Below are positions 6,098 through 38,739 of a stretch of DNA of 49,385 nucleotides, piece after piece. Under the pieces are notes generated by a model, which was given only the letters and a program-made list of their open reading frames with translations, made no database searches and was not told the DNA's origin. This stretch comes from Nemertoderma westbladi (lineage: Eukaryota; Animalia; Xenacoelomorpha), in contig JAUCBJ010005959.1 in the NCBI GenBank assembly GCA_032718475.1, positions 1 through 49,385 of the forward strand. Reading direction: 5' to 3'. The stretch's first letter is position 1. Every line of letters begins with the position of its first letter. Made by a program: the position numbers and the translations under genes.

Positions 6098-6128
6098 AGG
6101 CCTAAATAGTACTCAGACTGGAGATGAT

Positions 6129-9900: not shown

Positions 9901-10088
9901 TACCATCTCTCATAAACTTGCTGAATGGACTTTATAGTAAAAAATTTATCAAATCGGAGATTGAAACTGGGTGTCTAACAATACAAGAGTTAATAACTGT
10001 GTCATTTATTAAATCTACATACGGATTACAGAGTTTGAGCTTTAAACAGAAACCCACACGAGTCTTGGAATACTTCAACGTTAACTAA
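6940..10088 (+). pseudogene. LINE ORF2: AP endonuclease plus reverse transcriptase, one frameshift near 9050-9090
   Basis: APE motifs: GTLNCHG, LAIQEHW, LGDMNA, YIDHI, SDHAPI. RT motifs: YRPIS, DIASAFDSV, GVKQGSILSP, GCHI...CYADD, KFLGV. Confidence 0.95.
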
Positions 10089-18970: not shown

Positions 18971-19114
18971 GTGATGAATTATTTCACTATAAGATAGCAT
19001 TTGTAGTTTAACTTTAACGTAAAAACTTTCGAAAATCCGACGCATTTTGATTAAGTTACAGTAATGTAATATGCCTATTCATATTTGTACACATAAAACC
19101 CCTAGGTACTCTCA

Positions 19115-19198
19115 TGGCGTAGTGGTCAGATGGTTAAGGCGTTGGTTACATTACAGATAGGTTACGAGTTCGAATCCCGGTCGGAAAATTTGTATTTT
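19115..19198 (+). other. tRNA-derived Pol III promoter cassette in the LTR (second copy at 36039-36122)
   Basis: A box TGGCGTAGTGG (19115-19125), then tggttaaggcgttgg, B box GTTCGAATCC (19168-19177) and a T run near 19195. Acceptor and anticodon stems do not pair, so it is not an intact tRNA. Confidence 0.7.
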
Positions 19199-19234
19199 GG
19201 GACCATTTATTTTCATTTGGTGCAAATTGGTGGA

Positions 19235-19480
19235 CCAATGAGAAGCGTACAACGTAGCGAACGATGAGCCAGGCCAATCATGGGGCATAAAATATCTTAT
19301 TGCTCAAATGTGAGGCTATGGAAAATTCTGTTAGGATTCCATGTCCCAGATTAGTGTAAGGGCCGGATTGCGTTGAACGATGAGCTGGGCCAATCATAGG
19401 GCATAAAGCACTTTATTGCTCAAATGTGAAGCTGTGGAAAATTCTGTTTGGTTTCCATGTGCGATATTTAGTATAAAAGG
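19235..19480 (+). promoter_or_regulatory. LTR U3 promoter: duplicated CCAAT-containing unit plus TATA box
   Basis: Two diverged copies of gaacgatgagc..g.ccaatcat.gggcataaa...tgctcaaatgtga.gct.tggaaaattctgtt (about 19259 and 19376), then TATAAAA at 19472-19478. Confidence 0.65.
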
Positions 19481-22237
19481 CCGGTTTGCCTTCGGTTATC
19501 ACCTTCACCTTCACCCTTGTAAATTACCCCCTTCTTATATATTGTTATTAGTTTATTTGGTTTCTTGTTGAAACTTTGTTAAATCTGTTTGATAAATCCT
19601 TTGCTAAACTGTAATATACTGCAAATTCCTGAACATGTTTTCTTTTGGTCCAACTTTGGGACAGCCAAACAGCGGGAAGATGGCAGCCTAGACCGTTAGG
19701 CCGTCAGCAACGCAGGGGAAAGATGTCCACAACACGCTAGCGCCCACTTTGGATTTGACCGCGCACCCCCTTTGCCCTTCGAAATACTCCACTTGCCATG
19801 CAGCGCCCGCTTTGTGAGAAAGGTAAGACTTTGTTCGACGCCCTTGCCCGCCGTAAGACCTATAGATCAGGGTAAGCGTGACGCCGTCCTGGAATGCCGC
19901 AAAATTTAGGATCAAATAATTATATTTAGACAGGAACCCCCCCCCCCCCCCCCCCCCTTTTGTCATGTCCTGCAAACCCCTGGGTTAACCTGTACTTCTT
20001 ACAGGTGCGAACTATTGCCATTCGTCAGTACGCGAGTACATAGGTATGGACAGCATATGTTCCATAATTTAGTGATTCGTAGTACTGACTGTTTGGTACC
20101 GGTTCGCTTTGTAGAACGTACATTAGTACCCCCCCCCCCCCCCTGTCTGGAGTTAGCTATTTGATCAGGCAAGGAGTATTTCTGCTACCGGCACACTGCT
20201 TGGCCTAGGGAGGTTTTATTAATATCCTACCGCGCCTTGCCACATACTGATAGGTATTGCTGCTAACTACCGTGGCAACAAAGTTCTAGAATTAAATTAG
20301 TATACCAGATCAGCTAACGTATGGTAGCGATTAACCCCTATTTCTTATCTTACAACCAGAATCTGGTATTAGTGCCGATCACGGGTGTAGTTACTAACAC
20401 CGTGGTTGCCCATTGAGTTGTGGATAGGAAGGAGAGAGCTTTGACGTCATTTGTGAGTATAAAGTTCTACAAAACGCGACTAGTTTATTTTAGTAGCTAG
20501 CGCACGGTATCATTTCGGTCAGAAAATCACTAAAACCTAGTAAAAAAGGAGATACATAAAATTGTTTTATTTGTAACACACCCACACACACACGCCCTAA
20601 AACATATTCGCCCTTAGAGTTCTACTAGTTATAGCGTACTATATATTACTTTAGGCAGAATTTATCTGTATTTGTAAATTAGGATCTGATATTTAGTTAC
20701 GGCAAGAAGGAGCATTTCATTTTCGTTATTAAACTGTTGTTTCCTGTTCAGCAGTATTGTTACATTAGGCACGACCCTTTTCGACTGATTTAGGACTGAA
20801 TCAGTGTTGTTACGCTAGGTCTGTTAACCCACTAGCTCGTATATAAACCATATAAATCACACCGCGGCAAGTTACGATATTTAGGACTGTCAGTGATAGT
20901 TAGGATTCGCTACGCGGGGATTGTTTTCCCGTGAGTTTGGTCTGTTACTGTAACTGTACATCTGCCTCACCGGTTAGAGGACAGGTATCCTTTTGTCTAG
21001 TTTCGTAGGCATTAGACCCGCTCACGTACATAGAATAGACACTAGGCTCTGTTCCTCGCCAGTAGTCGTTTGTGTATTGTATCTGTTTGTTTAGATATCC
21101 TGGACTGGGATTTGTTGTCAGATACTGTACGAGCCCGTATACATTACTAGATCTTACGGTAAGATACATCGTTACTAGGATCCGGTAAGCGGTATACTAC
21201 TGGACCTTACAGTAAGAAGTACTATATAAATTAGTGTATAGTATTGTTTAGATATGTACGCTCTGTAAAGTGCATGCGCTCTTTACAGTGAGAAGTATTT
21301 ATTAAATATCTCGACCGAAGGTGCGTGCGCATTTAAGGTGGGATATATATATATAAATATTGTTAGCTATTGTAAGTAGGAGATATTTAAAATTTAAGGT
21401 TAGTAAATTTAGTAATTTAGAACGTCCCCTGCTTCAGTAGGCTTTTAGGGTAGCTAGTACTTTCGTATTTAATATTTGACTAGCTAACAGTTAGTTTGTA
21501 GCACTTTGTTTTACGCCGTGTGTGTGCGGTGTTACTTTCGGTACTTGAAAAGGTACATAGGGTTTAAAGACCAATTTGTATCGGTACCTAGGAAGATTTT
21601 TCGTAAGCGTAGAAGTAAAACTCTCACCTTCGACCTTTTCAGGACTCAAGGACTCATTTCTGGACCGCTTCGAGGATTAGACCGCTTTTCGCAAAGTTTG
21701 GGAGACAATAAATTCGTCCGCGCCACCGAAAAACGGAATGACCCACGTCCGGTTTGTATTTGGGAATTTGCACGACTGGAAGATCAAAGGAACGTAAGTT
21801 TTACGACTCACGTCGTTCAAACTTAAGAAAGCACAGTAGTACTCAAAATTTGTGGGTTTCACTGTCTATTAGTAGTGTTATTGGTACTTATTTTCCCGTT
21901 AGACGTTGCTGTTTTGCCTATTATTTGTACTTGTTGATCTATATTTTGGTAACGTATACCGTTATCTCATTTATTCGTACAAATTTAGCCGGTAGGCTAG
22001 ATTATTACTTATTTTATTGTATACTTTGTTAGTTTTATTTGTACCGGTTAGGGTATATATATGATATATATATATATCAAGGTAAGTTTGACATTTGTAC
22101 ATTTCGACATTCTGACTTGTTGATCTATTTGTACCGGTTGGGGTATATATATACTATATATACCAAGGTAAGTTTGACACTTCAACATTCAGACACTTTG
22201 ACATTTTATTACCTGTACTTGACGTATATAATAAGAC

Positions 22238-24799
22238 ATGAGTGACACACCCCATTCGACGAGATACCCACCTACCGACTATGACTCGTGCGACCCGGAC
22301 AGATCGACAGTAGACGAACCGAGAAGGAGAACCCGAGATTCCACCGATGTCACACCGCTTGCGTCGCCGGTACCCCGAATGGAAATACCGGAAGCCGCAA
22401 CGCGTGGCGACGGCAGAATCGAAGATTTCCTTACCGTCCCGCAGACCAGATCGCGGGAACCGGACATGGTAAGTTCGACTGGAAGCCAGGAGAACGTTAT
22501 TAGGAGTATAGGAGGACACATGGCCCAGATTACTCGGAACCTCGGAGAAGGTTTTCGCGTTTTACGCGAGTTAACCGCCCCGATGTCGAGATACGAGTTC
22601 TACACCTTACAAGTAAGGATAGAAAGTAGGGTACATGCCTCCGTAGATAAACTTAAAGGTTTACACGAACTTGCAGAGTTGCGTGGCGATAACTTTACTC
22701 AGGTAAAGATAATAGACAAGTTGGTAAGTGCGAGAGAAAGCCTTATCCAGTTTAAGTCGGTGATAAGATTGGCTCAACAGGAGCAGTTTGACCAACTGCT
22801 AGGTGAGTCAGTTTCGGACGCGTTGTTACAACCCGAAGAGGAAGAAGAACTCTACTGCCTGGACGGGAGGTTGGAAACGCTCACCAATTTTCTTCGTAGA
22901 TGCGGCGTACCGATCGACAAACCGGAAGTCGAACCGCGAGGAACGACGGAAGTTCTCACTACGGAAGGCTCGCGAGCCTACCAGCATCCACCTCTGGATA
23001 GATCGTTCGTTAGCATGCGGAGCGACGTTGGCGACGTTAGTAGGACAGCGTCTGTGATTACTCGACAACAATAGGACGTTGCACGCCGACAACAAGTCGC
23101 CGAGGAAGAAGCGCAACACCAGATGGCACAGATCGCCATCGAGGGAGAGAAACAATATAGAGAGGATGAGGCGAGAATTGCGCAACTCAAGGCGCAAGTC
23201 GAATTAGAATCCTCAGAGATGAGGAGACTAGAGGAAGATTTAGCACAAGAAGCAGCCGCAGCGGCGGCAGCCGACGAATTAGCACGGAAGAAAGCAGCAT
23301 CCGACGCTCGCGCCAAGTTGGAAGCGCGACAAATAGCCACTCGTTTAGCTATACAGGAAGCGGAGTTAGCGGCACAACAACAAGTAGCGGATCGACGCGA
23401 AAGGGAGATGCAACTACAGTTCGAATTAAATCGTAGATCGCGCGAGGCAGCGTACGCGCAAGCGGACCTTGAACTCGACGCGAGAGATAGATCTATAAGA
23501 TCGCGAGCTGGACACGACTTGTCTGCCCTGGATCGTATGGAAGCTCGATATCGCGGAATACAGAAGCGAATCGAGGAAGGAAGTGTGGGAGCGATAGATC
23601 GAGGAGAGGAGTTCGTCGAGGATTACTGTAAACGTTTTCCCCAAGTTATTCCTATGCTCAAACCCGCGACTTCGATAAAACCGGTCTTTGTTACGAAACC
23701 TAAGGAAATAACGCCTATGCGTTCGACGCAAGGCAACAGGTTTGTTGTGACGGAAATACCGCAACCTAGGGCGACTTCATCGCCAATTTTAGCAGGTAAC
23801 ATAACTATTCCACCTACAGTAAGTCGTAGTCTACTTGTAGGAAGAGAGGAACCTGCGTTTATGACCATTAAACAGGTGAGTAAACCATTACAAGTTAAAC
23901 CTGTGACGTGCTGTGCGAACCCAGTTATTTATAGACCGACTACGAAACCCGACTATTTCACTCAACCGTTGACACAATGTTCGACGCAACCTACGACTTC
24001 GTGGAAGGCTTGCGAGCCTACCGAACTACAGAGGAGGATGGATGTGGGTAGTACCCACGGGATCGGACAACGTATAACGAGACCTACGACTTGGTGGAAG
24101 GCTTGCGAGCCTACCGAACAACGGAGAGCCGTAGATCCCGGACCACAACGGACGAGACCGAGAATAATACGCCGGACACGAACCCACCAGCCATGTTATC
24201 TGGACGACAGCGACTCATCTAGTGACTCGGAGTCGACGGAACGGGAAATATTCCGTACTGGAGTGGCGGAGGATTACAAACGAGAGGACCCATCGATGAA
24301 CGCCTATATCGACAATCCACCTCGAGAAACACCCCAACAGAAACCCACGTTGAAACCAGCGGAAATGATCAGCGCCAAACAGTTCACCGAGATGACAGAC
24401 AGAATAGCTCAACTCGAAGAACGACTCGAAGCGCAACCGTCGGATCGATCACGAACCAGCGTGGAGTTGGAACAACCTAGACAACATCGACCATCAAGGA
24501 GAGAACAGGAGACTAGACGGACTCCGACACATCGAGAAGAAGATCCCGTTAATAATTCCTACCGACGAACAACGCGCGGAAGGGAGCGACTGGACGACGC
24601 CACCGAACAGGGACGCGGACAGTTGGATTTCGTTAGCGAGATTGCGAAATTTGCGGCTAGACACGGATTACCGGCACAGCAACCGCTGAAGTTCTCTGGC
24701 AACGCGAAACACTGGCGCACACTGGTAGACTACGTAGAGTCCCAGATCGCTAAGTGTGCTTTCACCTCGACGGAGAAGTTTAATTACTTAACTACTTAA
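22238..24799 (+). pseudogene. BEL/Pao gag N-terminal region (coiled coil, start of DUF1759-like domain)
   Basis: ORFs 22238-23074 and 23123-24799 are in one frame, split by a single TAG. Long E/A/R coiled coil; PLKFSGNAKHWRT...EKFNYL. Confidence 0.8.
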
Positions 24800-24948
24800 T
24801 TACTAACGCACCGACGGTTCTCATTCGAATAATCGGTCGACTTCACCATCGACTACGACGAGAATGGCGACGCATCGAGTACCAGCGTGAAGAGGCCGGA
24901 GGGTTATTAAAACTCACCGATGTCTATCAACTGATTTCACGGGAGGCC

Positions 24949-26499
24949 GTGATCGAGACTCGATCGAACTATACCGATCACCATATCGCGGCGGAAGGGA
25001 TAGCTATTTCTGCGCCGAATCAGACTAAACCACTTCCGACGAACGCGAAAGCCGTTACTTACGCCACCCCTACTGAGACTTCTAAAGTTCTGACGCCTAT
25101 CGGCACCACGCGGCCACGACAACAGTTGCCAGCGGACTTTGTAAGATGCTCATACTGCGAACAGAACGGCAGAAACTACAGCGGACATAAACTTCGTGGA
25201 TGTCGCGCTTTTAAGGAGTTAGGGATTGAAGAAAGGAGACTCCAAATCCGATCGTTAGATTCCTGCTGGAGATGTATGAAGCCAGGACACGTCCGGAAGG
25301 ATTGCCCGAGCGACGATACATGTCCTCAGTGTGGACGTAACCATGACGCGTTGCTTCACACAACCAGTCATACTCCGACCAAACGCTTTCGACGAGAGCA
25401 TCCAGATAAAGCAGCTAGATGCGACGCACTTTACAAGGAGCGTGCGCCGCGTGAGATCCGTACCTTTTATACAGACTGTATGGATCAGTCAGGATCATCG
25501 CACGAGGACAAGGAGGAAGACGACACTTTCTACGTGCATGCAGGTGAGGAACAGCCTTCGATAACGCTCCTCACACAGAACCAACTGAAAGGGTTTCGCG
25601 TGATTCCTATAAAGATTACCGGAACCCGAGGGAGCAAGCGTATATACGCCATCTTAGACTCTGCGTCATCGCATAGCTATGTCGACGAACAAGTAGCCGA
25701 CGTAGTTACGGACATGAGTCAAGGTAAGACTGCTCAGTATACTGTAAGCAGCATGCATGGTAAGAGAGCGATCCCTGTGACGAGAGTAAAACTAACTTTA
25801 GACACTCTTCTTTCCAAAGCGGAACACAGCAAGGAGGAGCGCTCATTACTTCCGGTAAGAAATTTGACCTTTGCAGCTACGAAGGACTTTAGTAACTTGC
25901 TCGGCCCTGTGCCAGAGCAATCACCAGAAGATCGTAAGTATTTCCGACACCTTGGAATACCGGAATGTCCTGTTAATTATCGTTCCATTGCGATGTTAAT
26001 TGGGACAGACCAGTTTAACTTACATCAGGTATGGGAGACACGCCCATCTGTTATTACAGCGGGCAACCCCTACGCATGTAAAACTCCCATAGGTTGGTAT
26101 ACTAGAGCACCAATACGTTCACTAGAGGTAAGTGACCAGGAGGACGACGTTTTGAGTATGTGTACTTTATTGACTAACACGATAGATAATTCTCCTTCAC
26201 ACTCCTGTGGTCCAATTGTACGGACGGCACTACGACAGACTTGCGTCACTAACGCAGATGCCACCGATACTGACGTAACCGATCTGGACACGACCATACG
26301 GACCTCTGACTTACAACTACTTGCAGTAGACCAGGTTGTATTGACTACTGAAGACCAAAGGGTTGTTGCCGTGGATGACTCGATGAACGAGGATTTTGGA
26401 AGGCTTGCGAGCCTACGAAAAATCCAAAGGTCATTGACCCCACCCACCAGGCTTCGACACCGGTCGTTGATCTTGGAAGGCTTGCGAGCCTACCGATAG
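24949..26499 (+). CDS. BEL/Pao gag zinc knuckles plus aspartic protease
   Basis: CSYC...H...C, CWRCMKPGHVRKDC, CPQCGRNHDALLH triple knuckle; AILDSASSHSYV; MLIGTD; KTPIGW. Confidence 0.92.
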   Translation: MIETRSNYTDHHIAAEGIAISAPNQTKPLPTNAKAVTYATPTETSKVLTPIGTTRPRQQLPADFVRCSYCEQNGRNYSGHKLRGCRAFKELGIEERRLQIRSLDSCWRCMKPGHVRKDCPSDDTCPQCGRNHDALLHTTSHTPTKRFRREHPDKAARCDALYKERAPREIRTFYTDCMDQSGSSHEDKEEDDTFYVHAGEEQPSITLLTQNQLKGFRVIPIKITGTRGSKRIYAILDSASSHSYVDEQVADVVTDMSQGKTAQYTVSSMHGKRAIPVTRVKLTLDTLLSKAEHSKEERSLLPVRNLTFAATKDFSNLLGPVPEQSPEDRKYFRHLGIPECPVNYRSIAMLIGTDQFNLHQVWETRPSVITAGNPYACKTPIGWYTRAPIRSLEVSDQEDDVLSMCTLLTNTIDNSPSHSCGPIVRTALRQTCVTNADATDTDVTDLDTTIRTSDLQLLAVDQVVLTTEDQRVVAVDDSMNEDFGRLASLRKIQRSLTPPTRLRHRSLILEGLRAYR

Positions 26500-26579
26500 A
26501 TCAAGAAGTTGTCAAACCGCCGCACGACGATTCGACGCCGACTAGTGACACCGGAAGGCTTGCGAGCCTACCAGACACC

Positions 26580-27560
26580 TTGACACTAGCCACCGCAGCG
26601 GATGAAGACGTGGACGAGGACCATGGCGCAGTGCAAGCAGCGCTAGACCGACTGCTGACTGAACGGACCATTCAATGGTTGGAACAGGACTCAGCAGAAC
26701 CCGGTAGTTACGAGATCGCTATGTCAGAACAGGAAAAACGGTCATTAAATATTATGAGAGATACCATTCGCCAGACCGCGAATGGCCACTATGAGGTTGG
26801 TATGTTGTGGCGCAATGGACAACCTAAGCTCGTTAACAATTACCCGCTTGCTTTGAGGCGACTCAAATCAATAAGGCAGCGATTATTGCGAGACGAGACG
26901 GCCCATATGCAATACAATGCACAACTTCAGACGTATCTCCAAAAGGGATACGCCATTAGGATGTTAAATCCCGAGGTAACCACAGACCAGACATATTACC
27001 TGCCACATCATTTTGTTCGACACCCGGACAAACCTGGCAAGGTGCGTGTAGTCAACGACTGCGCCGCGCTTTACCAAGGGATGTCTATGAACAGCGAACT
27101 GATGGACGGGCCGAATATGAACAATTACCTCATGGGAGTCCTAATGCGTTTTAGACAACGCAAAGTGGCTTTCACCTGTGACGTAGAGGCCATGTTTCAC
27201 CAGGTTAAGGCTTTGGAGCGGGACAGGGACAGCTTGAGGTTTCTTTGGTATCCGGACGGAAACTTACAACTTCCGCCAGAAACTTACCAAATGCAGGTAA
27301 GAGTATTCGGAGCCAGGGACAGCCCCAACTGCACCATGTACGCATTAAAGCAGACCGCATTAGACAGACGAGACCAATTTGACCCAGAAGTAGTTCGGAC
27401 CGTGGAACGAGACTTCTACGTGGATGACGGCCTCAAGAGTTGTGACACCTTGGAGCGCGCTACAACCGTAGCACACCAACTCCAGGATTGTCTCGCGGAG
27501 CGGCGGATTTCACCTGACGAAGTTCGCTTCCAACGAACCCGAGCTGGTGAACTCATTTGA
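26580..27560 (+). CDS. BEL/Pao reverse transcriptase
   Basis: YYLPHHFV..PDKPGKVRVVND, LMRFR, DVEAMFHQV, LRFLW, FGARDSP, DFYVDD. A one-base insertion near 27497 breaks GGFHLTKFASN. Confidence 0.96.
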   Translation: MTLATAADEDVDEDHGAVQAALDRLLTERTIQWLEQDSAEPGSYEIAMSEQEKRSLNIMRDTIRQTANGHYEVGMLWRNGQPKLVNNYPLALRRLKSIRQRLLRDETAHMQYNAQLQTYLQKGYAIRMLNPEVTTDQTYYLPHHFVRHPDKPGKVRVVNDCAALYQGMSMNSELMDGPNMNNYLMGVLMRFRQRKVAFTCDVEAMFHQVKALERDRDSLRFLWYPDGNLQLPPETYQMQVRVFGARDSPNCTMYALKQTALDRRDQFDPEVVRTVERDFYVDDGLKSCDTLERATTVAHQLQDCLAERRISPDEVRFQRTRAGELI

Positions 27561-30500
27561 CCCGATGGATCACAGTGGAGGTGACTTGGACTTAGACCTA
27601 GAACCTCTGCCGACGACCAAAGTATTAGGACTTAGTTGGGACCCTAACACCGACAATTTTAGGGTACGTGTAAGGTCCAACGACCAGACTAGACCTCTCA
27701 CTAAGAGGACTTGCTTATCGACCATGAGTCGATTGTATGACCCATTGTGTTTCATTAGTCCAGTGATCCTACATGCTAGGATCATACTCCGCAGCATTTG
27801 GCAAGCCGGACTGGAATGGGACGATCCCATCCCAGAAAAGTTAGCTGAGCGATGGAGGGACTGGGAAGCCCAACTGACGTTCCTACAAGACTATACCATA
27901 CTGAGGGTATACTTTCCTTTGCAAACCACCTTTCCTGCCGATTTAGAGCTTCACAGCTTTAGTGACGCTAGCAAGGATGGATTGGGGGTTACTTTGTACC
28001 TTAGACGACAAGTGACATCGGACAGCTACGATGTATCTCTCGTTACTTCAAGAGCTAGAACAATGCCATTGAATTATATGACTGTACCTCGTGGGGAGCT
28101 GCAAGCCGGGATGATATTCTCCGATATTGTCAGTCTAGTTCAACGCAAGCTGGAGGCTAACTTGAAGGTCACATATTGGACGGATGCGACGTTGGTACTT
28201 TGGTACATAAACAACGAAGCGTTTGAGTTCAAGACTTTCGTAGCCAACAGACGGGCTGAAATACTAGACCGGTCGCTCAAACAAGATTGGCGTCACTGTC
28301 CAGGGAAGCTGAACCCAGCTGACATCGCGTCACGGGGGATGCAACCACTTGACTTTTGTAAACCGGACAATAAATCCTTTTGGTTTAGAGGACCCGATTT
28401 CCTACAGCGACCATCAGACGAATGGCCACCGTTATTCGACGCGACAACCAACACCATACCAGAGGGTGCCGAGATAAAAATCGACAAGGTTGTCAAGTCT
28501 AAAGCGAAAGCCAATGCCAAGGTCAAAAGGAAAAAGGGACAGACGAAATCTGATGACCTGGACGCCAGACCTGACATTACGCCAGACGTCTCACCAGACA
28601 TTCGACCAGACGCTTGTACGAATTCTTCGCCGGATGTTCCGCGGGAGATTTCACCAGACGTTTCGCCGGATTGTTCACCAGATCACTCGCCAGACTATTC
28701 ACCAGAAGCGACACCAGATTGTTCTCCGGATTGTTTGCCAGACTGTTTGATGGAACTCTCGACAGAATGTCTACCGGACGTCTCACCAGACTTTCCACCA
28801 GACATCTCGACAGAATGTCCACCAGACTTTGAACCAGACTTTCTGACAGAAGTTACGCCAGACAGACCTTGGGACCGACGACAAGACATTTCGCTGGAAG
28901 TTCCGCGCTATGTCTCACCAGACGTCTCACCAGACTGTTCACCGGACGCTTCACCAGACTGTCTATTAGACACTCCATTAGAAGACCCATTGGAGCGGAC
29001 TTTTAGAGACTTACCGAATTTGACTTCTTTGGACGACAAAGGTGTGGCCACAGCGATCACACTCCGCTCAAAGAAAGTACTTGACTTACCTACAGGTAAA
29101 CGTGTGACTAAGGTTAGGAAGCTTACAGGCTCACAGGAACACACTGACACTGTAGAGTTGAAACCGTTACTGCCAGTCGACACATTAGGTGCGGACGGTA
29201 AAGGTAAGACCATAGAGATTGACGTACTTGGGGACTCAGACAAACCTACCGGAAGGCCCATGGGCCTACCAAGTCCAGACAAGTATCCACACTACGACTA
29301 CACCTTACCTGATGACGTCACCAACACTTACGTTGACAGGATAGTAAACCTAACTAGATCATGGACTGACGCATGCCGCAAGTTAGCATGGCTCAAACGA
29401 TTGAGACAATATGCCAGAGGCAAACGCGACTTTCCTAGAAGACTTACCTTAAAGGAAGTTGGCCACTGTGAAGTTGATATCATTAGACATTATCAATTGC
29501 GATATTTCGCACGAGAGTTCACAGCGATCAAACAAGGTAAACAGATTAAGTCTTCACCGATTTTGAGTTGGAGTCCGATTATTTACCGGGGCTTACTTTG
29601 TCACAAGTCCAGACTCCAAAAAATCGACTTTGCACTTGACTTTAGGTATCCTATCATCATACCGCAACACCATGAATTACAGCGCGCTATGATACTGGAC
29701 GCACATGTACAACTCAAACACGTGGGTAGACACCACTGTCTGTCACACTTACGCCCGAGGTTTGTACTGATTAGACCTAGTAAGGCACTGAGTTCGGTAA
29801 CGCGGAACTGTATTATTTGTAAGAAGGTGCACGCGAGGATAGGACACCAAGAAATGAGTGAACTACCACTAGCTAGATTACAGGCGTTTAGACCCCCTTT
29901 CACTGAGACAGGGATAGACTGTTTTGGACCCATAATCGCGAAACGCGGAAGGGTACAGGTAAAACGTTGGGGATTGATCTTCACTTGCATGGCCAGCAGA
30001 GCTGTCCATATAGAGCGAGTGACAGATTTGAACACCAATGCCTTTATCCTAGCCTTACGGCGATTTATCGCTAGACGTGGATTGGTCAAATCCATTTACT
30101 GCGACCAAGGGACAAACTTTGTGGGTGCACGGAACGAAATAACCAGAGCTTTGAGAAAGTTGGACCAAAACCAGATTTCCGAGGAACTACGTCCTCACCG
30201 TATTGTTTGGAATTTCAACACTCCAGACAGTACGTGGAGAGGTGGCGCTTGGGAAAGGCTGATTGGCTCAATTAAAACAGCTATGGCTAAAGTAGTACCG
30301 ACGCAACACATATTGACAGACGACCAACTGACGACGTTACTAATAGAAATCGAAGCAATCTTAAACACTAGACCGATCACTTTGATCCCAGACAATAACG
30401 ACGCACAGTTTGCCTTGACACCAGCGCACCTGCTTATGCAGGCGCCGACGACATTGTTGCCCATTTCGGTACCCGTTGATAGTGACGGATACGGCAACAA

Positions 30501-30837
30501 GGCTTGGAAAATCACTCAATTGCTTGCAAATAAATTCTGGGAAATATGGCTGAAATATTATTTGCCCTCTATTTCAACCAGAACCTCTTGGTATCTAAAT
30601 ACCCGATGTTTAAGACGTGGTGACCATGTTTTATTGGCTGAAGCAAATCTGAAAAGACGGTTTTGGCTGACTGGAGTCATTTTGACCACACACCCTACAT
30701 CTGGTGTAGTAAGGACAGTTACTGTAAGGACTATAGAGGGACGTACCGTAGATAGGCCTGTACAACGTCTCGTGCTCCTTGAAGAGACTAGAAACGAGAC
30801 AGGAGACTACAAATCTCCACCCAATATTAGTAAATAG
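27547..30837 (+). CDS. BEL/Pao RNase H (Pao peptidase A17 region) plus integrase
   Basis: KVLGLSWD, LYDPL, LHSFSDAS, TVPRGEL, WTDA, NPADIASRG; H..HVG...CIIC; TGIDCFGP, IYCDQGTNFVGA, GGAWERLI, LNTRPIT, RPVQRLVLL. Confidence 0.96.
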   Translation: MNSFDPMDHSGGDLDLDLEPLPTTKVLGLSWDPNTDNFRVRVRSNDQTRPLTKRTCLSTMSRLYDPLCFISPVILHARIILRSIWQAGLEWDDPIPEKLAERWRDWEAQLTFLQDYTILRVYFPLQTTFPADLELHSFSDASKDGLGVTLYLRRQVTSDSYDVSLVTSRARTMPLNYMTVPRGELQAGMIFSDIVSLVQRKLEANLKVTYWTDATLVLWYINNEAFEFKTFVANRRAEILDRSLKQDWRHCPGKLNPADIASRGMQPLDFCKPDNKSFWFRGPDFLQRPSDEWPPLFDATTNTIPEGAEIKIDKVVKSKAKANAKVKRKKGQTKSDDLDARPDITPDVSPDIRPDACTNSSPDVPREISPDVSPDCSPDHSPDYSPEATPDCSPDCLPDCLMELSTECLPDVSPDFPPDISTECPPDFEPDFLTEVTPDRPWDRRQDISLEVPRYVSPDVSPDCSPDASPDCLLDTPLEDPLERTFRDLPNLTSLDDKGVATAITLRSKKVLDLPTGKRVTKVRKLTGSQEHTDTVELKPLLPVDTLGADGKGKTIEIDVLGDSDKPTGRPMGLPSPDKYPHYDYTLPDDVTNTYVDRIVNLTRSWTDACRKLAWLKRLRQYARGKRDFPRRLTLKEVGHCEVDIIRHYQLRYFAREFTAIKQGKQIKSSPILSWSPIIYRGLLCHKSRLQKIDFALDFRYPIIIPQHHELQRAMILDAHVQLKHVGRHHCLSHLRPRFVLIRPSKALSSVTRNCIICKKVHARIGHQEMSELPLARLQAFRPPFTETGIDCFGPIIAKRGRVQVKRWGLIFTCMASRAVHIERVTDLNTNAFILALRRFIARRGLVKSIYCDQGTNFVGARNEITRALRKLDQNQISEELRPHRIVWNFNTPDSTWRGGAWERLIGSIKTAMAKVVPTQHILTDDQLTTLLIEIEAILNTRPITLIPDNNDAQFALTPAHLLMQAPTTLLPISVPVDSDGYGNKAWKITQLLANKFWEIWLKYYLPSISTRTSWYLNTRCLRRGDHVLLAEANLKRRFWLTGVILTTHPTSGVVRTVTVRTIEGRTVDRPVQRLVLLEETRNETGDYKSPPNISK
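28560..28975 (+). repeat. Degenerate 12-bp coding repeat (x-S-P-D units) between RNase H and integrase
   Basis: tcaccagac-type units encode DVSPDCSPDHSPDYSPE..., in frame with pol. Confidence 0.9.
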
Positions 30838-31572
30838 ATGTGGGACCTTTGTTGGCCGCCACATAGACCTACTGTATTTTAGTTATTTTGTATTTGTATT
30901 ACTGTACGTGCATTTGTAATCCTCTTCACTGTAGATAGAGACAGCGGTGGAATTCCATTGTCTTTATATGTGAACATGGAGGGTAGTACCCTTATGTATC
31001 ACATAGGAGCGGGATTGTGTGTACAGTAGGAATGGAATTCCACTTGGAACCCACAAGTGAGACAATTTTTCAAAAATTATTAGACAAATCCATTTATTTG
31101 GATTTAAATTTAAGAAAAACGAATCTCCAGTGAATGCGAATTCTAGAATACAGCTAGATAAAAATTAAAATTGGGGAGGACAAGAGCGGATGGAAGGCTT
31201 GCGAGCCTACCGATAAATTTTTTTTGGAAAAGAAAACCAGCCTTGTTCTACGTAGTCGTGTCTACTATCATTTAGACCAATTAATTCTCGACTGCACTAT
31301 TTTCTTGGGGAATGTAGCATGGGAAATTAAAAGGTGAGTATTTTAGACTCGCGGCTAGTTTACCCGGAATTCGTTTTTTATCGGCACATTTTTTGGATTA
31401 GGAGCCAGTGCGAAATCACGCGAACCCGAAATCATTAGGCAAATGGGTTGGGGTTTAGAGCAGAGTTGAGCCAAAAGCCGACAAACTCTAAGTCACCTCA
31501 CATCTAACCTCTATTTTGTGCTTCATCTACTAGAAACGTAACGATATGTAACCACATATATATTCATATACG

Positions 31573-34500
31573 ATGGCGGAGAAGATGTATAAAGAGTTAC
31601 GTCAAGGGTTTACGCAAGAACAAGAGCACCAGGCGCCATTCAATCGTTATGGAGCTAAAAACTTTAGTGTGTTTGGAGTGGAGAGTATGGTTAGGAGTAC
31701 GGCCAAGCTCGCTAAATCCAAGGCGGACCCAAATGTTACGCGACAGCGGTTGGACGCATACAACAAAAGAACGGAGGAATTACGCGCTGAGTTCAATGCA
31801 TTATATCCCTACGATGCGTTATGCGACGCTAGCGGTAAATGAACCGACGGGGATGACCGAGTTTGACGGTAAATGAACCCTTACCTGCAGCTAGAGACGA
31901 ATTTGAAGGAATGCTTCTTTATAGACGCACTCGAGGAGCGGATCCTGAGACCAAGGATGCGTTCTCCATATACAAACTGTTTTATAAATGTGGAGCGTGT
32001 ATGCGCGAGCAAGACAACGCGATTCCTATGCGGTTGAACTCGGAGAACCCCGAGCCGATATTAGCGCGATGTTCACACCACCAAAGTCTACGTTACCAAG
32101 AAGGCGGATACCCTTTGACAAATCCGTATCATTCGTTTAAAATGAGTGGACCGAACGTGGGTGAGATCGTTATTTACGAACCCAAATTAGTCGAACCAGA
32201 CATCTACAGCATGTTAGTGGACGAGTCTAATAAGTCGACACAAGAGCTTTGAGCCTCTACAGGGCGTACAAGGCGTATGAGAAAGGCGAGATCGAGGAGT
32301 TCGGCGGAAGGCTCGCGAGCCTACCATTCTATTGGATATCCCACGATCAAACCGAACCCAAGGAGATGACACCCGAGCTCTTTGATAGTATCACCTTTGC
32401 TCAGCGTTTGTCGCAGAGACTACAGATACCTCATGTCGAGATGACGCGAGAACCTCAGCCCCATTCTACTGGAGCGATAGTACCGGTTGCGAGACCAACT
32501 AGTTTTCCTATTAGTATACCGACCCGGAAGGAGACAACTTACGAGATCCCTATAGTTGAACACCCGGAGATCATCTCGAACCTGGATTTCCTTGCGTAAA
32601 GTAATAGTTCAAAAAATCGTACGCAACGTGCCTCCACATATTACGGACTTTAAGGAAGTAGATCGCGCGGGGACGGATATTGCACCTTGTATCTTGCGAG
32701 GATATCTGACGAAGACGATTCGATTATGGATCGGAGTTGGAACGTTTGAGACCGACACCGATATCGCGACCAATTGGACCGGTAAACCTATTAGTTTCGA
32801 TGATGAAAAGTCGATTGGGAGAATTTGGAACCCTACCGACGATTTACTCGACGATTGGGACGTGACTAGCCGATCTCTAAAGGAGAATGGTTATATGTTT
32901 TACGATAATGAAGGAGGAAGCCATCAGCAAAGCCTCACTTCAAAGACTATACAGATTAGAGCACCAGATGGCGTGTTACATGTCTTCAGCCGACAGAGGA
33001 GTGATAGGAAGATGCCTATGCCGGAAGGAACGACGCAAAGATACACGATGATAAAACAGATAGTTAAATCCATGGACCTGGCTTGTAGCATCGAAGCTAG
33101 GATGTTGCCAAAGGCCGTGCGAGACGTTGTGTTGGATAAGAGCATCGTCAAGATCGGATCCGGTGTACGGGATGACCTTATTAGCGACTTTGCAGGGATG
33201 CCCACGGAAAAGGACCGATTGCCTACGCCATACGTGGATACTAGACCATTGTTGCTTTGGGCTATTGAGCAAGGATATTTTAGGGAGTATAACACGCTAA
33301 AAACTGGGACAGGTTATATCTCATATCTAATGTTCAGTTGGGATTACAAGGAGAGTAAGAGGAGCAAATACACGGACGTATACGGAGAGGGAGATACCCC
33401 CGGCGTAAACGAGTTCGAGTCACAGTTGAAGTGGCGAGGTTGCGTGTATTGGGCGATTACTTCACCTCCGCGGATAATCTTGCAATACTATTTAGCGATA
33501 GAATCTTCGGTTAACGTTTGTTTCATCGCAGATGTAGTATCCAGAACCCTAAAGCGACACCCGTTATGTCTTAGCGAAGGACATACCTTTTACGATGGAG
33601 GAAGGACGCATACTGATGTATTCCGACGATTTCTCCAACCCTTTTATAACACTGATGCGCACTGCGAAGTTTTCACGCGAGCGGGACTTAGCGTTTTCAG
33701 GGACGTCTATCTCACTCACGCGGGAAGTCTAGTCGACAGACCGTCGATGTTAACGTTAGTACCCTACGACGGGGAACACCACGCGGAATTCGAATGCCCG
33801 GAAGGATCCTGGAAGCCTCGCGAGCCTACCGCCCATCACGACGATGTGGATCCGACCGAGTTGGCGCTAATAGACGAACCGTTACGGCAACTCATAGAGA
33901 TAGAGGAGAACCTTCCGAGGAAGACGCGAACTGAAATACGCGAGTTGGAGAAAAGCGATGCCATGGTTTGTGTACAACCTACGGAGACGAACATACCGAC
34001 TGACCCGGATGATGAGAATTATCACGTGGACGGTAGCGCTCGCCCCATCGGAGATCTCATCTATGAGCGAGTTTGGTATCCTGCCAACACTATTTGTGGC
34101 AGATGCGGAGCAACTGGCCATCACGCAAAGAAATGCGGAGCGAAGCACATATCTCTACCGGATTTAGTATGTAACTGGTGCGGGGATCAACGTTTGCACA
34201 CTTTCTACACTTGCTGGCGTTTCGTGGCGCAGTGCACTTATTGTAATATTAAGGGCCATAGGGCATCCGAATGTCAACTTAGAGACGTCCCCTATGAGCA
34301 CATGTCAGTTAAAATCGTTCGACAATTATTCGACCATTGGGAGGATCAAGCAGACGAACATGTATCGACGCAGCGACGCCGCTTCCCTATGAGAGCACAT
34401 TTGGGATTTTGGGCCGTAAACCCTCTCATAATGTCAAAGGAAGGATATGTATCGGCTATGCCTCAGTATGATGAATTGTTGGAGGTGTTGGATATATTGC

Positions 34501-35249
34501 CATTGGACAGCGGATTCAAAGTTGTGCGGGACTATTTCTTACAAGTGCACCCCGACAACAAGAATACTTGGAACTTTCAAACTGTGGTGAACAAGATTAC
34601 CGCCGGAGAATTCGATAAACTGCGAGTTGAACAGCGGAATCGAGGAGCCTGGCATTCGATAGCTTGGGCATACCGGAGCGCATTTTATCACAAACGAGTA
34701 ACCTCGTGTATTCTAGACGAGACCGACGTTTTGCGTGAGACTGGCTTCAAGGCCACGCCGTTAGCAGAGAAGACGCGTCACCCACAGGATGATCAGCAAT
34801 TTCGTATACTCAAAGCCCAGAAGTCCGGACAAGAGATAAAGAACATAGTAAATGTCGCCGAGAGGACGACATCGAAGTCGCAAATCCGGATGACTCGGGG
34901 CACGGTTTCCCTTGCTAGAGAACCACGCGGAGGGACAGGATACGCTTTGCCTGAACCCATTAGGATTCAAACGACGTCAGAGAGCAAGGTGTCAGCGGAC
35001 GGAACAGTCCCACCCTTTCGACTTCCTCCTAGCGTTGTGGAGACTCGATCCGATGTTAAGCCGACAGTTGGAATCGGACGAGGATTTAGAGGATTGAGCG
35101 CACGACGGATGTGCGAAACTCCCGTCGTCCCCTTTCCTAGCGTTTTGGAACCACCGACGACTCGACGCCGAAGTCCGAGCCCAGTTCGACCTCGACCACC
35201 CCCCAATCGCACTAGAGAACATGGACGAGCCCGCTCAGCGAAGGAATAG
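31573..35249 (+). CDS. Extra ORF: DEDDy (WRN/EXD/RNase D-like) 3'-5' exonuclease plus three CCHC zinc knuckles; N-terminal part frameshifted
   Basis: ExoI KPISFDDEK (32784-32810), TIQIRA, LPKAVRDVVLDKSIVKIGSGVRDDL (ExoII), YVDT, ExoIII-like QYYLAIE (33483-33503). Knuckles CGRCGATGHHAKKC, CNWCGDQRLHTFYTC, CTYCNIKGHRASEC (34095-34274). Intact block is 32556-35249. Confidence 0.75.
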
Positions 35250-35284
35250 GAAGCGAGTAGAAGGAAGGCTTGCGAGCCTACCGA

Positions 35285-35365
35285 TTTGGATATTATATTT
35301 GGATATTATATTTGGATATTATATTTGGATATTATATTTGGATGTTTATATTGGACATTATGTTT
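35285..35365 (+). repeat. 14-bp tandem repeat (tttggatattatat), about 5 copies, in the 3' UTR
   Basis: Directly visible between hairpin copies at 35263 and 35399. Confidence 0.9.
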
Positions 35366-35895
35366 GAATGTTGGGTTTGTAGGAGCGAGATATGGAAAGG
35401 AAGGCTTGCGAGCCTACCGTTAGTAATTAGTGCTCAGGAGAAGATATCCAGACCAGCAGGACGAACTTTAAGCTTGTCAGGAGGACCCTTTAAGACTCAT
35501 TTTAAAGTTATTAGCGCATTGTGTTTATATTATATTTGAACTGATTTAATTTGGTGGAAGTTTATTATGTATATTTACAATATGTAAAGATTTATCGAAA
35601 GAGTTACAATTATTTGTTCGATTTGTTTTGATTTATTTGTTCTGATTTGTTTAATTTGCTTACCTTGATAACCGAAAGCCTTTTTTGTATTTTAGGCACT
35701 AAAGTTAATTAGTAAATTTGTATTTGTATGTACGATCGATTGTATTTACGCCGTATCTGCAATATTAAGTATGCCATAATTAGATAGTGATTATATTTTA
35801 TATTTTAGGCCCTACCAGTAGATTTAGAAGTAGTTTGTAAACATTTTATATTTCGATTGGTGAAAACAGTCTTACTTACTGTTTTCATGGAGCGG

Positions 35896-38046
35896 TGATG
35901 AATTATTTCACTATAAGATAGCATTTGTAGTTTAACTTTAACGTAAAAACTTTCGAAAATCCGACGCATTTTGATTAAGTTACAGTAATGTAATATGCCT
36001 ATTCATATTTGTACACATAAAACCCCTAGGTACTCTCATGGCGTAGTGGTCAGATGGTTAAGGCGTTGGTTACATTACAGATAGGTTATGAGTTCGAATC
36101 CCGGTCGGGAAATTTGTATTTTGGGGCCATTTATTTTCATTTGGTGCAAATTGGTGGACCAATGAGAAGCGTACAACGTAGCGAACGATGAGCCAGGCCA
36201 ATCATGGGGCATAAAATATCTTATTGCTCAAATGTGAGGCTATGGAAAATTCTGTTAGGATTCCATGTCCCAGATTAGTGTAAGGGCTGGATTGCGTTGA
36301 ACGATGAGCTGCGCCAATCATAGGACATAAAGCACTTTATTGCTCAAATGTGAAGCTGTGGAAAATTCTGTTTGGTTTCCATGTGCGATATTTAGTATAA
36401 AAGGCCGGTTTGCCTTCGGTTATCACCTTCACCTTCACCCTTGTAAATTACCCCCTTCTTATATATTGTTATTAGTTTATTTGGTTTCTTGTTGAAACTT
36501 TGTTAAATCTGTTTGATAAATCCTTTGCTAAACTGTAATATACTGCAAATTCCTGAACATGTTTTCTTTTGGTCCAACTTTGGGACAGCCAAACATCGGG
36601 AAGATGGCAGCCTAGACCGTTAGGCCGTCAGCAACGCAGGGGAAAGATGTTCACAACACGCTAGCGCCCACTTTGGATTTGACCGCGCACCCCCTTTGCC
36701 CTTCGAAATACTCCACTTGCCATGCAGCGCCCGCTTTGTGAGAAAGGTAAGACTTTGTTCGACGCCCTTGCCCGCCGTAAGACCTATAGATCAGGGTAAG
36801 CGTGACGCCATCCTGGACGCCGCAAAATTTAGGATCAAATAATTATATTTAGACAGGAACCCCCCCCCCCCCCCCCCCCCTTTTGTCATGTCCTGCGAAG
36901 GTTCGTAGTACTGACTGTTTGGTACCGGTTCGCTTTGTAGAACGTACATTAGTACCCCCCCCCCCCCCCCCCCCCTCCTGTCTGGAGTTAGTTATTTGAT
37001 CAGGCAAGGAGTATTTCTGCTACCGGCACACTGCTTGGCCTAGGGAGGTTTTATTAATATCCTACCGCGCCTTGCCACGTACTGATAGGTATTGCTGCTA
37101 ACTACCGCGGCAACAAAGTTCTAGAATTAAATTAGTATACCAGATCAGCTAACGTACGGTAGCGATTAACCCCTATTTCTTATCTTACAACCAGAATCTG
37201 GTATTAGTGCCGATCACGGGTGTAGTTACTAACACCGTGGTTGCCCATTGAGTTGTGGATAGGAAGGAGAGAGCTTTGACGTCATTTGTGAGTATAAAGT
37301 TCTACAAAACGCGACTAGTTTATTTTAGTAGCTAGCGCACGGTATCATTTCGGTCAGAAAATCACTAAAACCTAGTAAAAAAGGAGATACATAAAATTGT
37401 TTTATTTGTAACACACCCACACACACACGCCCTAAAACATATTCGCCCTTAGAGTTCTACTAGTTATAGCGTACTATATATTACTTTAGGCAGAATTTAT
37501 CTGTATTTGTAAATTAGGATCTGATATTTAGTTACGGCAAGAAGGACCATTTCATTTTCGTTATTAAACTGTTGTTTCCTGTTCAGCAGTATTGTTACAT
37601 TAGGCACGACCCTTTTCGACTGATTTAGGACTGAATCAGTGTTGTTACGCTAGGTCTGTTAACCCACTAGCTCGTATATAAACCATATAAATCACACCGC
37701 GGCAAGTTACGGTATTTAGGACTGTCAGTGATAGTTAGGATTCGCTACGCGGGGATTGTTTTCCCGTGAGTTTGGTCTGTTACTGTAACTGTACATCTGC
37801 CTCACCGGTTAGAGGACAGGTATCCTTTTGTCTATTTTCGTAGGCATTAGACCCGCTCACATACATAGAATAGACACTAGGCTCTGTTCCTCGCCAGTAG
37901 TCGTTTGTGTATTGTATCTGTTTGTTTAGATATCCTGGACTGGGATTTGTTGTCAGATACTGTACGAGCCCGTATACATTACTAGTTCTTACGGTAAGAT
38001 ACATCGTTACTAGGATCCGGTAAGCGGTATACTACTGGACCTTACA
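35896..38046 (+). repeat. 3' LTR (2151 bp)
   Basis: Preceded by PPT-like atggagcgg. Lacks the segment equivalent to 19974-20075, which is replaced by gaagg at 36897-36901. Confidence 0.96.
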
Positions 38047-38739
38047 AGTTAACTTTGAAAGTCCTCAGCAAGTCTCTGATCGGATGAGCATAAGCTCAAA
38101 AGATGGTATGCTTGAGCATGTGGATGACTTCTGTTACCTGGGATCATGGATCCGGAAATCAGGCGAGGACCTTCGAATACGTAAGGGAAAGGCATGGGCA
38201 GCCTTAAATAGGCTTTCCAGGATTTGGAAGTCACCGAGAATTAATCGGAAACTTAGGGTCCGGTTATTTAGAGCAGCAGTAGTTCCAGTACTCCTCTATG
38301 GGAGTCCATGCTGGGCTCTAACTGCTGAGGACACCAAATCTCTGGATGGCACATTCACAAGAATGCTACGCCGGGTTCATTGTGTCAAGTTCAATGCACA
38401 CATCTCCAACCAGACACTATATAACATTGGAGGTGTCTCATTGGTTCCCCCAAGCTTGACACTAGAACAAAATCGCCTCCGCTTTGCAGGACATTGCTTT
38501 CGCCGTGAGGACCAGCCAGTGCATAATCTTGTACTTTGGCAGCCTTATGGAGTGAATAAGCATGGTGGACAGCCAATGACTTTCTTGAGACGCATCTTAA
38601 ATGACACTGGCCTTGAAGATGCGGATGATCTAGCAAATGTCATGGGTGATAGGGAGTTGTGGCGGTGCAATTTTGTCGATAAGCCGGCACACCATTCTTA
38701 AAAATGCAGCTGCAATGCAGCATGCCGATCCTAGTAGTA
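38047..38739 (+). mobile_element. RTE-clade LINE, 3' part
   Basis: VDDFCYLGSWI, RKGKAWAA, VLLYGS..W, RLRFAGHCFR, DRELWR; short 3' UTR ending in tagtagta. Confidence 0.93.

Follow-up and report, generated by a model that had tools for sequence, protein, structure and literature searches.

Why does one 20-nt motif recur twelve times within a single LTR retrotransposon, and at what level are its copies constrained? We analysed a 49,385-nucleotide stretch of Nemertoderma westbladi DNA (contig JAUCBJ010005959.1, the window), in which a search of the whole length on both strands detected 12 copies, all on the + strand and inside the element only.

The host element and its coding layout

The element is a BEL/Pao-type LTR retrotransposon of 19,075 bp on the + strand. 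The 5' LTR (18972..21211, 2,240 bp) has TG...CA ends and the 3' LTR (35896..38046) lacks about 100 bp corresponding to ~19974-20075 of the 5' LTR; the two are 98.4-98.9% identical over two aligned blocks. The left target-site duplication (18967..18971) shares four of its five bases with 38047-38051, and the insertion split a LINE RT gene into pieces at 17654-18997 and 38024-38701. The gag and protease region (22235..26499; ORF pieces 22235-23074, 23075-24799 and 24784-26499) includes a zinc knuckle. RT, RNase H and integrase (26379..30837; ORF pieces 26379-27560 and 27472-30837) are separated by long lineage-specific linkers, and the pol domain matches were Peptidase_A17 (6e-38), DUF5641 and Integrase_H2C2.

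We found LTR-flanked gag-pol, the PR-RT-RH-IN order and a BEL-type Pol sequence, and the element is filed as BEL/Pao-type by Pol alone. As far as the consulted parts of PMC8742986 and PMC3118150 describe the Belpaoviridae, it shares with them the LTRs, PR-RT-RH-IN, Peptidase_A17 and DUF5641, and its RT is 41-51% identical to the listed BEL proteins; it differs in its length (19 kb, against a median of 7.4 and a maximum of 22.8 kb) and in having no tRNA-type primer site. The total length and the 2,240-bp LTR exceed the ICTV profile (4.2-10 kb; LTR 0.2-1.2 kb) and are within the range of the wider BEL/Pao survey (maxima 22,762 and 2,427). The 18-nt tRNA-Arg/Gly primer site of the ICTV profile is absent after the 5' LTR, and the primer-site position (21212..21222, + strand) has no TGG tRNA-type start; a TGG start was likewise absent at the three other BEL loci whose LTR end is clean. 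The 11 nt at this position of our element are exactly complementary to 19992-20002 of the 5' LTR (chance 9e-4), which makes Tf1-like self-priming possible.

The extra coding region 3' of pol (31508..35249, + strand, in pieces) contains the ORF 32556-35249, with an exonuclease-like part and CCHC knuckles. Against WRN-like exonuclease clusters this ORF has an Atlas feature score of 0.92, with 159 of 256 features shared; a DEDDy domain with catalytic residues is only a candidate on these features, with no Pfam, PDB or sequence match and a single-sequence fold at pLDDT 30, and the exonuclease identity is a lead only. The knuckle region scored below 0.9. Homologues were absent among 6,492 near-length candidates, 1.84 billion representatives and the PDB, and the ORF is an orphan, which sets the element apart from other BEL/Pao members.

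Placement of the copies and constraint on nucleotides

The eleven starts listed in the preliminary description were recovered, nine exactly and two (26398 and 33811) with one mismatch each, and the variant copy at 29251 is real. Dinucleotide shuffles gave no match in 100 (mean 0.00), and ten minus-strand matches are the same sites, seen through near-palindromy. A profile built from 11 of the 12 copies, scanned over both strands of the whole window, scored the copies at 26.8-40.6 bits and the best other site at 4.0 bits; within the window no further or half-decayed copy was detected, and the reported absence from the LTRs and from outside the element stands.

The first copy (22963..22982, loop CGCG) lies at the end of the first gag ORF piece, 1,751 nt past the LTR, and the leader (21212-22962) carries none. 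Copies 24003..24022 and 24096..24115 (both loop TGCG) are in gag and share a 93-nt local duplication. Copies 26398..26417, whose 3' end deviates from the other copies, and 26475..26494 are in the PR-RT linker, and 26553..26572 is directly upstream of the RT core; all three have the loop TGCG. The variant (29251..29270; closing pair C-G, loop CATG) is in the RH-IN insertion, and its 14-nt palindrome is still perfect. Copy 31192..31211 (TGCG) is non-coding, between pol and the extra ORF. In the extra coding region, 32306..32325 (CGCG) is upstream of the exonuclease-like part and 33811..33830 (CGCG, with one stem-breaking change) is between that part and the knuckles; 35263..35282 (TGCG) begins 14 nt past the extra-ORF stop and 35399..35418 (TGCG) is 3' non-coding. 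The copies form eight clusters, defined after the data had been seen, three of which are local pairs or triplets spaced 77-136 nt apart; seven of the 12 copies sit in such local clusters and nine in ORFs.

The motif is read, as had been claimed, in all three frames (EGSRAY once, WKACEPT/WKPREPT three times, GRLASLP/GRPMGLP four times) and is non-coding in three copies; 26398 falls within two overlapping ORFs. Protein-level selection on the motif is ruled out by these frames and the non-coding copies. All eight clusters are outside the PR, RT, RH and IN cores common to other BEL proteins (p ~0.04), and their spacing is more even than random in 100,000 placements (p 0.005 by CV, 0.020 by largest gap). 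Taken with the three frames and non-coding copies, core avoidance and even spacing argue for constraint on the nucleotides.

Flanks of the dispersed sites are unrelated (25% identity, 28 pairs). In the sole clearly homologous duplication (24003/24096) the motif differs at 0 of 20 positions and the flanks at 23 of 60 (p 4e-4). A pooled test (1 of 81 motif positions differing against 101 of 223 flanking ones) was set aside as inflated, because the flanks of three of the four pairs (0.52-0.54) fall inside the range seen for unrelated sites (mean 0.43, maximum 0.57). Among the 40 variant places listed of 1,368 in family contigs none is in the motif, where 0.65 would be expected, a comparison of no power. 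A search of sequencing runs listed nine, with no RNA holder among those listed.

A functionless or selfish micro-repeat, recently spread by RT template switching, homogenised by conversion and tolerated only in linkers, would account for the orientation, the core avoidance and the local duplicates; a stop-free 20-mer in three frames is easily tolerated, and two copies (26398, 33811) are damaged. We consider this very unlikely, since the motif is unchanged where duplicated flanks diverged, the spacing is even, there is no continuum of decayed copies, and the sites share no target-site duplication. A micro-transposon with target duplication was rejected on that last ground, the longest flank repeat being at most 3 nt at 11 of 12 sites. 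RNA genomes with direct repeats are prone to template jumps, and the extra ORF needs an expression route, so that the motif could be a recombination or template-jump site yielding deletion derivatives or subgenomic RNAs. This is highly improbable: none of the 15 joints listed (of 190 in family contigs) ends within 5 nt of a motif, and the motif positions do not follow ORF starts.

Folding, pairing and the possible role of the motif

The proposed hairpin (GG-A-5 bp-tetraloop-5 bp-A-CC) holds for 10 of the 12 copies (-7.6 to -9.6 kcal/mol, folded alone) and fails in two: 26398 retains the inner stem alone (-6.0 kcal/mol), and 33811 barely folds (-1.0 kcal/mol) owing to its stem-breaking change, which had not been flagged before. 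The A-A mismatch described as fixed is invariant in 12 of 12 copies. Within windows of 120 nt, ten of the 12 copies form the hairpin at p > 0.9; in 300-nt windows hairpins are lost at neighbouring copies.

The central 14 nt are self-complementary through the loop in 11 of 12 copies; the element interior has 13 GC-rich self-complementary words of 14 nt, of which 11 are motif copies. The loops UGCG, CGCG and CAUG are all among the 36 of 256 self-compatible tetramers, and they rank 15, 4 and 6 among the 256 tetraloops by duplex gain; simple CpG decay of CGCG also yields both UGCG and CAUG, and five of eight such products are self-compatible anyway. Computed homoduplexes are 15.5-19.7 kcal/mol better than two hairpins, and the predicted two-copy form is a 14-bp duplex with two 2-bp ends, framed by the A-A mismatches. 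These energies indicate possibility, not use, because any near-palindrome gains energy as a duplex. The variant at 29251 pairs poorly with other copies (computed gain 2-6 kcal/mol), and its symmetry is kept by two double changes (15 of 500 shuffles), one of them at both central loop bases; these bases are unable to pair within the hairpin, so the symmetry is of no use to a hairpin. This covariation rests on one copy, and under the hairpin structure alone it is not above shuffles (323 of 500).

The preliminary description had suggested a multivalent RNA signal for packaging, export, dimerisation or nuclease protection, like a phage operator hairpin. Its nucleotide constraint and its confinement to the element within the window are retained, and an RNA signal is still the likeliest reading; its hairpin-only picture misses the self-complementarity through the loop, which favours dimerisation or compaction among those options and makes the MS2 operator a less apt analogy. 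We tentatively favour, as a quite possible function on these predictions, a repeated RNA signal, switching between hairpin and duplex, through which the long genomic RNA is linked and compacted, similar to the retroviral DIS/PAL signals but dispersed. Newly made RNA would fold the hairpins, and a zinc-knuckle chaperone (Gag NC or the extra-ORF knuckles) would bind the invariant A-A/GG-CC foot and convert pairs of hairpins to duplexes, either in the same RNA or across two co-packaged RNAs. A contact every 1-3 kb could keep the ~17-kb RNA compact and aligned, which would serve packaging and reverse transcription. The copies may have spread by local duplication and template switching, surviving only in linkers that tolerate seven forced codons.

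Several observations count against such a pairing signal. The perfect central palindrome would suit a dimeric DNA-binding site just as well; dimer and packaging signals known from other systems are in the 5' leader, where the element has no copy; and the four copies in or after the extra ORF would presumably also be on any subgenomic RNA. The shared orientation is no proof of an RNA role, because copying by RT would probably give the same orientation anyway and the DNA motifs of VANC proteins are one-oriented too.

The hairpins could instead be tags that act without pairing, as docking sites for the extra-ORF protein or a host factor in export, germ-line transport or protection from silencing. 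The invariant A-A mismatch and GG/CC foot suggest reading by a protein, the hairpins form readily in the shorter windows, and the extra ORF combines knuckles with its resemblance to WRN-like exonucleases. According to part of PMC13186709, Egalitarian has an exonuclease-homology domain that recognises stem-loops in RNA, the I-factor signal among them; Egl signals, however, are helices that are longer and bent. In rotifers, LTR elements carrying a DEDDy ORF3 (PMC5408684, as far as consulted) similarly have an exonuclease-like domain (a lead here) in an additional ORF downstream of pol, but belong to other LTR lineages (Juno, Vesta), and the words hairpin and stem-loop are absent from the main text of that paper. 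Such a tag is somewhat unlikely, as it leaves the symmetry through the loop unexplained and leans on an exonuclease assignment that is a lead only.

Double-stranded DNA is the other candidate substrate: the half-sites YGGWAGGCY are in inverted order, and a dimeric protein, for example a VANC-like anti-silencing factor encoded by the element, could cover the long interior at regular intervals. The extra ORF being an orphan fits this reading, as does the CpG o/e of 0.89-1.37 across the element against 0.34-0.68 in two LINEs (one the insertion target), but high CpG may reflect youth alone and its fall from 1.25 to 1.0 away from the motif is confounded with the enzyme cores. The VANC/VANDAL motifs, in the consulted part of PMC5735166, resemble ours in being family-specific, of one orientation, spread by tandem duplication and accompanied by an element-encoded extra protein; they differ in belonging to a plant DNA transposon and in being 8-9-bp non-palindromic DNA motifs in non-coding arrays. 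Here the motif is not mainly in non-coding tandem arrays, with nine of 12 copies in coding DNA. A DNA site is quite unlikely in view of this, of the absence of copies from LTRs and leader, where silencing acts, of the RNA-type extra-ORF knuckles and of G.U-type asymmetries that favour + strand RNA; for UGCG-type copies the computed duplex gain is 15.5 kcal/mol on the + strand and 7.7 on the - strand.

Known systems and matches beyond the window

Retroviral palindromic stem-loops are refolded by NC from kissing to duplex forms (PMC5874298, in part), and the Ty1 PAL sites are a precedent for palindromic pairing (PMC4974528, in part). Like ALV L3, MuLV SL-A/SL-B, HIV-1 SL1 and Ty1 PAL, as these partly consulted sources present them, the motif is by computation a short self-complementary stem-loop switchable to an extended intermolecular duplex, with an internal mismatch as a potential weak point of the stem and binding site for a chaperone. 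Those signals lie near the 5' end as a single sequence or a few different ones, whereas here one sequence occurs 12 times in 12.5 kb, for the most part in coding linkers. In ssRNA viruses and HBV, dispersed packaging signals (PMC6281560, in part) are many genome-wide stem-loops with a shared motif, for which spacing matters, and multiple dispersed stem-loops with a shared motif are found here as well; theirs have variable sequence surrounding a small loop motif and are bound by capsid, while our stems are near-invariant, the loop varies and copies are predicted to pair mutually.

According to the ICTV profile, the replication of BEL/Pao elements is poorly understood, and in the literature searched we found no cis-acting RNA signal for BEL/Pao, no comparable dispersed motif array and no distributed dimer linkage for LTR elements or retroviruses. 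If the motif pairs, the retroviral idea of dimer linkage at a single 5' site gains a distributed counterpart. An unlikely extension of the pairing signal is a genome-long RNA zipper, in which a dozen interchangeable palindromes would act at many points to fasten two genomic RNAs or gather them into a granule, and would be read by the orphan exonuclease-fold/zinc-knuckle protein; the oversized, possibly self-priming element would have no tRNA to bridge a dimer. Transcript production, RT processivity and packaging capacity set a limit near 10 kb, according to part of a review of giant transposons (PMC6431247), and the zipper, if true, would offer a candidate explanation for how giant retroelements exceed this RNA length limit. 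As an experimental handle, a motif of 20 nt that hardly varies and is evenly spaced is unusually simple.

The relaxed motif is absent from 11 BEL loci in GTDB contigs, which are no test of the element's own family because their RT identity is 33-42%, and no peptide trace was found in 240 BEL proteins; no BEL locus was found in viral contigs. Dispersed 12-mers at the other BEL loci were words at locus ends (L010), a single AT-rich word (L012) and an 11-copy word mostly far from the RT match and not a hairpin by eye (L016). A relaxed-pattern scan of the viral collection detected seven single-copy loci, four with identical flanks and three that are an arm of the phage C4 antisense RNA, a resemblance taken as coincidence; single copies also occur at two GTDB and two metagenome loci, and none of these 11 viral, GTDB and metagenome loci shows similarity to BEL or the window.

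No copy matched an Rfam covariance model at E values up to 5, and mimicry of the histone stem-loop, which the motif resembles, is ruled out by the length of the stem and by the loop. In favour of the pairing signal, the two bases on either side of the motif covary as U.G (six) or C.A (four), which are isosteric wobbles, and are never Watson-Crick (p 0.005 over all copies and 0.03 when counted by cluster).

Structure of the BEL/Pao-type element and its extra ORF

The element that carries the motif copies is 19,075 bp long in total, is bounded by TG...CA LTRs (18972-21211 and 35896-38046, 98.4-98.9% identical) and is inserted within a LINE RT gene, with 4/5 bases matching in the target duplication. 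Its Pol is of BEL/Pao type by Peptidase_A17 and DUF5641, and the named best matches belong chiefly to molluscs, echinoderms and cnidarians; the integrase search added fish and arthropods. These taxa suggest an animal host. The best database matches reach 41-51% identity for RT and 31-41% for integrase, and the element therefore has no close relative in the database. The reading frame is broken near 23070, 24790, 26380-26500, 27470-27560 and 31840-32600. The RNase H and integrase markers are 517 residues apart, compared to a maximum of 297 in relatives (both markers found in 105/240), and the PR-RT distance is about 448, compared to a median of 273 and a maximum of 685 (90/240). The RNase H-integrase insertion contains 12-nt tandem repeats with SPD-rich coding units (28560-28990). 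A GC-rich 54-nt tandem array (2660-4200) precedes another LINE (4179-10088), which encodes endonuclease and RT.

Contigs from four sequencing runs, three of them with the same organism label, span the interior in numerous diverged forms, which places the element in a multi-copy family. In two runs, family contigs lack 31834-32043 and 32107-35119 and likely represent a derivative without most of the extra ORF; such a derivative would have lost motif copies 9 and 10 and retained 11 and 12. The extra ORF (32556-35249), an orphan coding region downstream of pol, encodes several CCHC-type knuckles, and two large protein searches turned up no homologue of it. Part of it scored 0.92 to WRN-like exonuclease clusters, an identity left unconfirmed by searches on sequence, PDB and fold, and an exonuclease-like part is considered a lead. 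By eye, the acidic catalytic motifs of this part seem altered.

Leader region and putative self-priming

The 11 nt following the 5' LTR (21212-21222) are the exact complement of 19992-20002 within that LTR (chance 9e-4), a length that agrees with the 11 bases used in Tf1 self-priming (PMC7175516, PMC6317226). From sequence, Tf1-like self-priming of a BEL/Pao-type element is a possible lead, and the complement site is kept at that level because the 3' LTR lacks it and its sequence is also splice-acceptor-like. A leader-LTR complement of 9 nt or more was found in 0/4 other BEL loci. For Ty1 and Ty3 the tRNA primer was formerly proposed as a dimer bridge, a model later questioned (PMC4974528); by that proposal we speculate that a tRNA-free element might need palindromes of its own.

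The end of the LTR and the leader (21150-22200) contain several GTAAG donor-like words and a 91-nt tandem pair (22026-22202). By eye, a stretch resembling a tRNA, with A-box- and B-box-like words, is present in both LTRs (~19112-19185 and ~36036-36109); ARAGORN and Rfam did not call it. In the 5' LTR a 116-nt tandem pair (19259-19489) comes after it.

Distribution and conservation of the motif copies

All 11 motif sites of the preliminary description (22963, 24003, 24096, 26398, 26475, 26553, 31192, 32306, 33811, 35263 and 35399) were matched on the + strand, 9 exactly, and 0/100 dinucleotide shuffles matched the motif. The variant at 29251 is real, with stems kept, a closing C-G pair and the loop CATG. 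The profile scan of both strands of the whole window scored the 12 copies at 26.8-40.6 bits and background at 4.0 or less, with nothing between; it detected no half-decayed copies, and the reported absence from LTRs and flanks was upheld, as was the invariance of the A-A mismatch across copies. Copy 33811 has a stem-breaking change. Family contig versions include a length difference within copy 26398, so the departure of that copy is not common to all members.

As first noticed, the motif is read in three frames and also lies in non-coding DNA, there in 3 copies. Dispersed sites have unrelated flanks (25% identity, 28 pairs), and between 24003 and 24096, a 93-nt duplication, the motif differs at 0/20 positions versus 23/60 in the flank (p 4e-4); flanks of the remaining three tandem pairs were too diverged to count and the pooled flank test was set aside. 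A neutral micro-repeat appears improbable as the explanation of the array, and a jump site highly improbable, since among the joints listed for family contigs (15 of 190) 0/15 touch the motif.

The eight clusters formed by the copies, defined post hoc after data inspection, are spaced more evenly than random (p 0.005-0.02), and all eight avoid (p about 0.04) the stretches shared with the other BEL proteins; one such stretch is touched at its edge by copy 29251. The same orientation holds in 8/8 clusters (p 0.008); this uniformity is real but cannot tell an RNA role from a DNA role.

Hairpin and duplex potential of the motif

The explanation that we favour, with slightly less than even confidence, is that the motif is a repeated RNA hairpin/duplex switch. 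Its copies would act as such switches along a long RNA (roughly 17 kb, as we infer), contacts at many points would link and compact this RNA, and a zinc-knuckle chaperone would read the A-A foot (the mismatch with GG/CC). The central 14 nt are self-complementary in 11 copies (G.U allowed), and 11/13 GC-rich 14-nt self-complementary words of the interior are motif copies; other BEL interiors (n=4) hold 1-3 such words, unrelated. All three loops are self-compatible (36/256 tetramers qualify) and rank 4, 6 and 15 of 256 in duplex gain. The computed duplex of two like copies is 15.5-19.7 kcal/mol better than two hairpins, and for the common UGCG type the computed gain is halved on the opposite strand. 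In 29251 two double changes preserve the symmetry; one of them falls on the central two bases of the loop, for which pairing in cis is impossible. Such symmetry-keeping changes were matched in 15/500 shuffles and come from one sequence. Excess covariation for the hairpin alone was not detected (323/500 shuffles), and bases flanking the motif covary as U.G or C.A (p 0.005; 0.03 by cluster).

Against the switch, CpG decay of CGCG yields both loop variants, 5/8 of its products being self-compatible anyway, and 29251 pairs poorly with other copies. The palindrome would equally suit a DNA-binding dimer. A VANC-like DNA site, with a precedent in PMC5735166 and a CpG o/e of 0.89-1.37 in the element versus 0.34-0.68 in LINEs, is unlikely. 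Slightly less unlikely, yet still doubtful, is that the copies are simple hairpin tags, recognised by the extra-ORF product or by some host factor; Egalitarian provides a precedent (PMC13186709).

For the hairpin/duplex switch, the position, spacing and symmetry of the copies are observed and their folding and pairing computed, and binding, dimerisation and packaging via the motif would follow retroviral DIS/PAL and Ty1 PAL precedent (PMC5874298, PMC4974528). In its working, the closest counterpart of the array would be a dimer or packaging signal; however, it lacks the 5' location of DIS/PAL, and its invariance sets it apart from viral dispersed packaging signals (PMC6281560). A literature search for such an array retrieved nothing relevant, most subscription journals being outside its reach. 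The feature is strange and cheap to test, and its function is a prediction.

Phage C4 antisense RNA (viral loci L002, L003 and L004, match at centre) has one arm with the GG-A-5bp-tetraloop-5bp-A-CC layout, a likeness taken as coincidence. Eleven BEL/Pao retrotransposon contigs (L010-L020) are likely host contamination in the GTDB bacterial MAGs that contain them (Rubritalea, Endozoicomonas and others). One of these, L016 (122-18504), has a ~30-nt repeat in 11 same-orientation copies that surround its BEL RT match and lie for the most part towards the ends of the locus.
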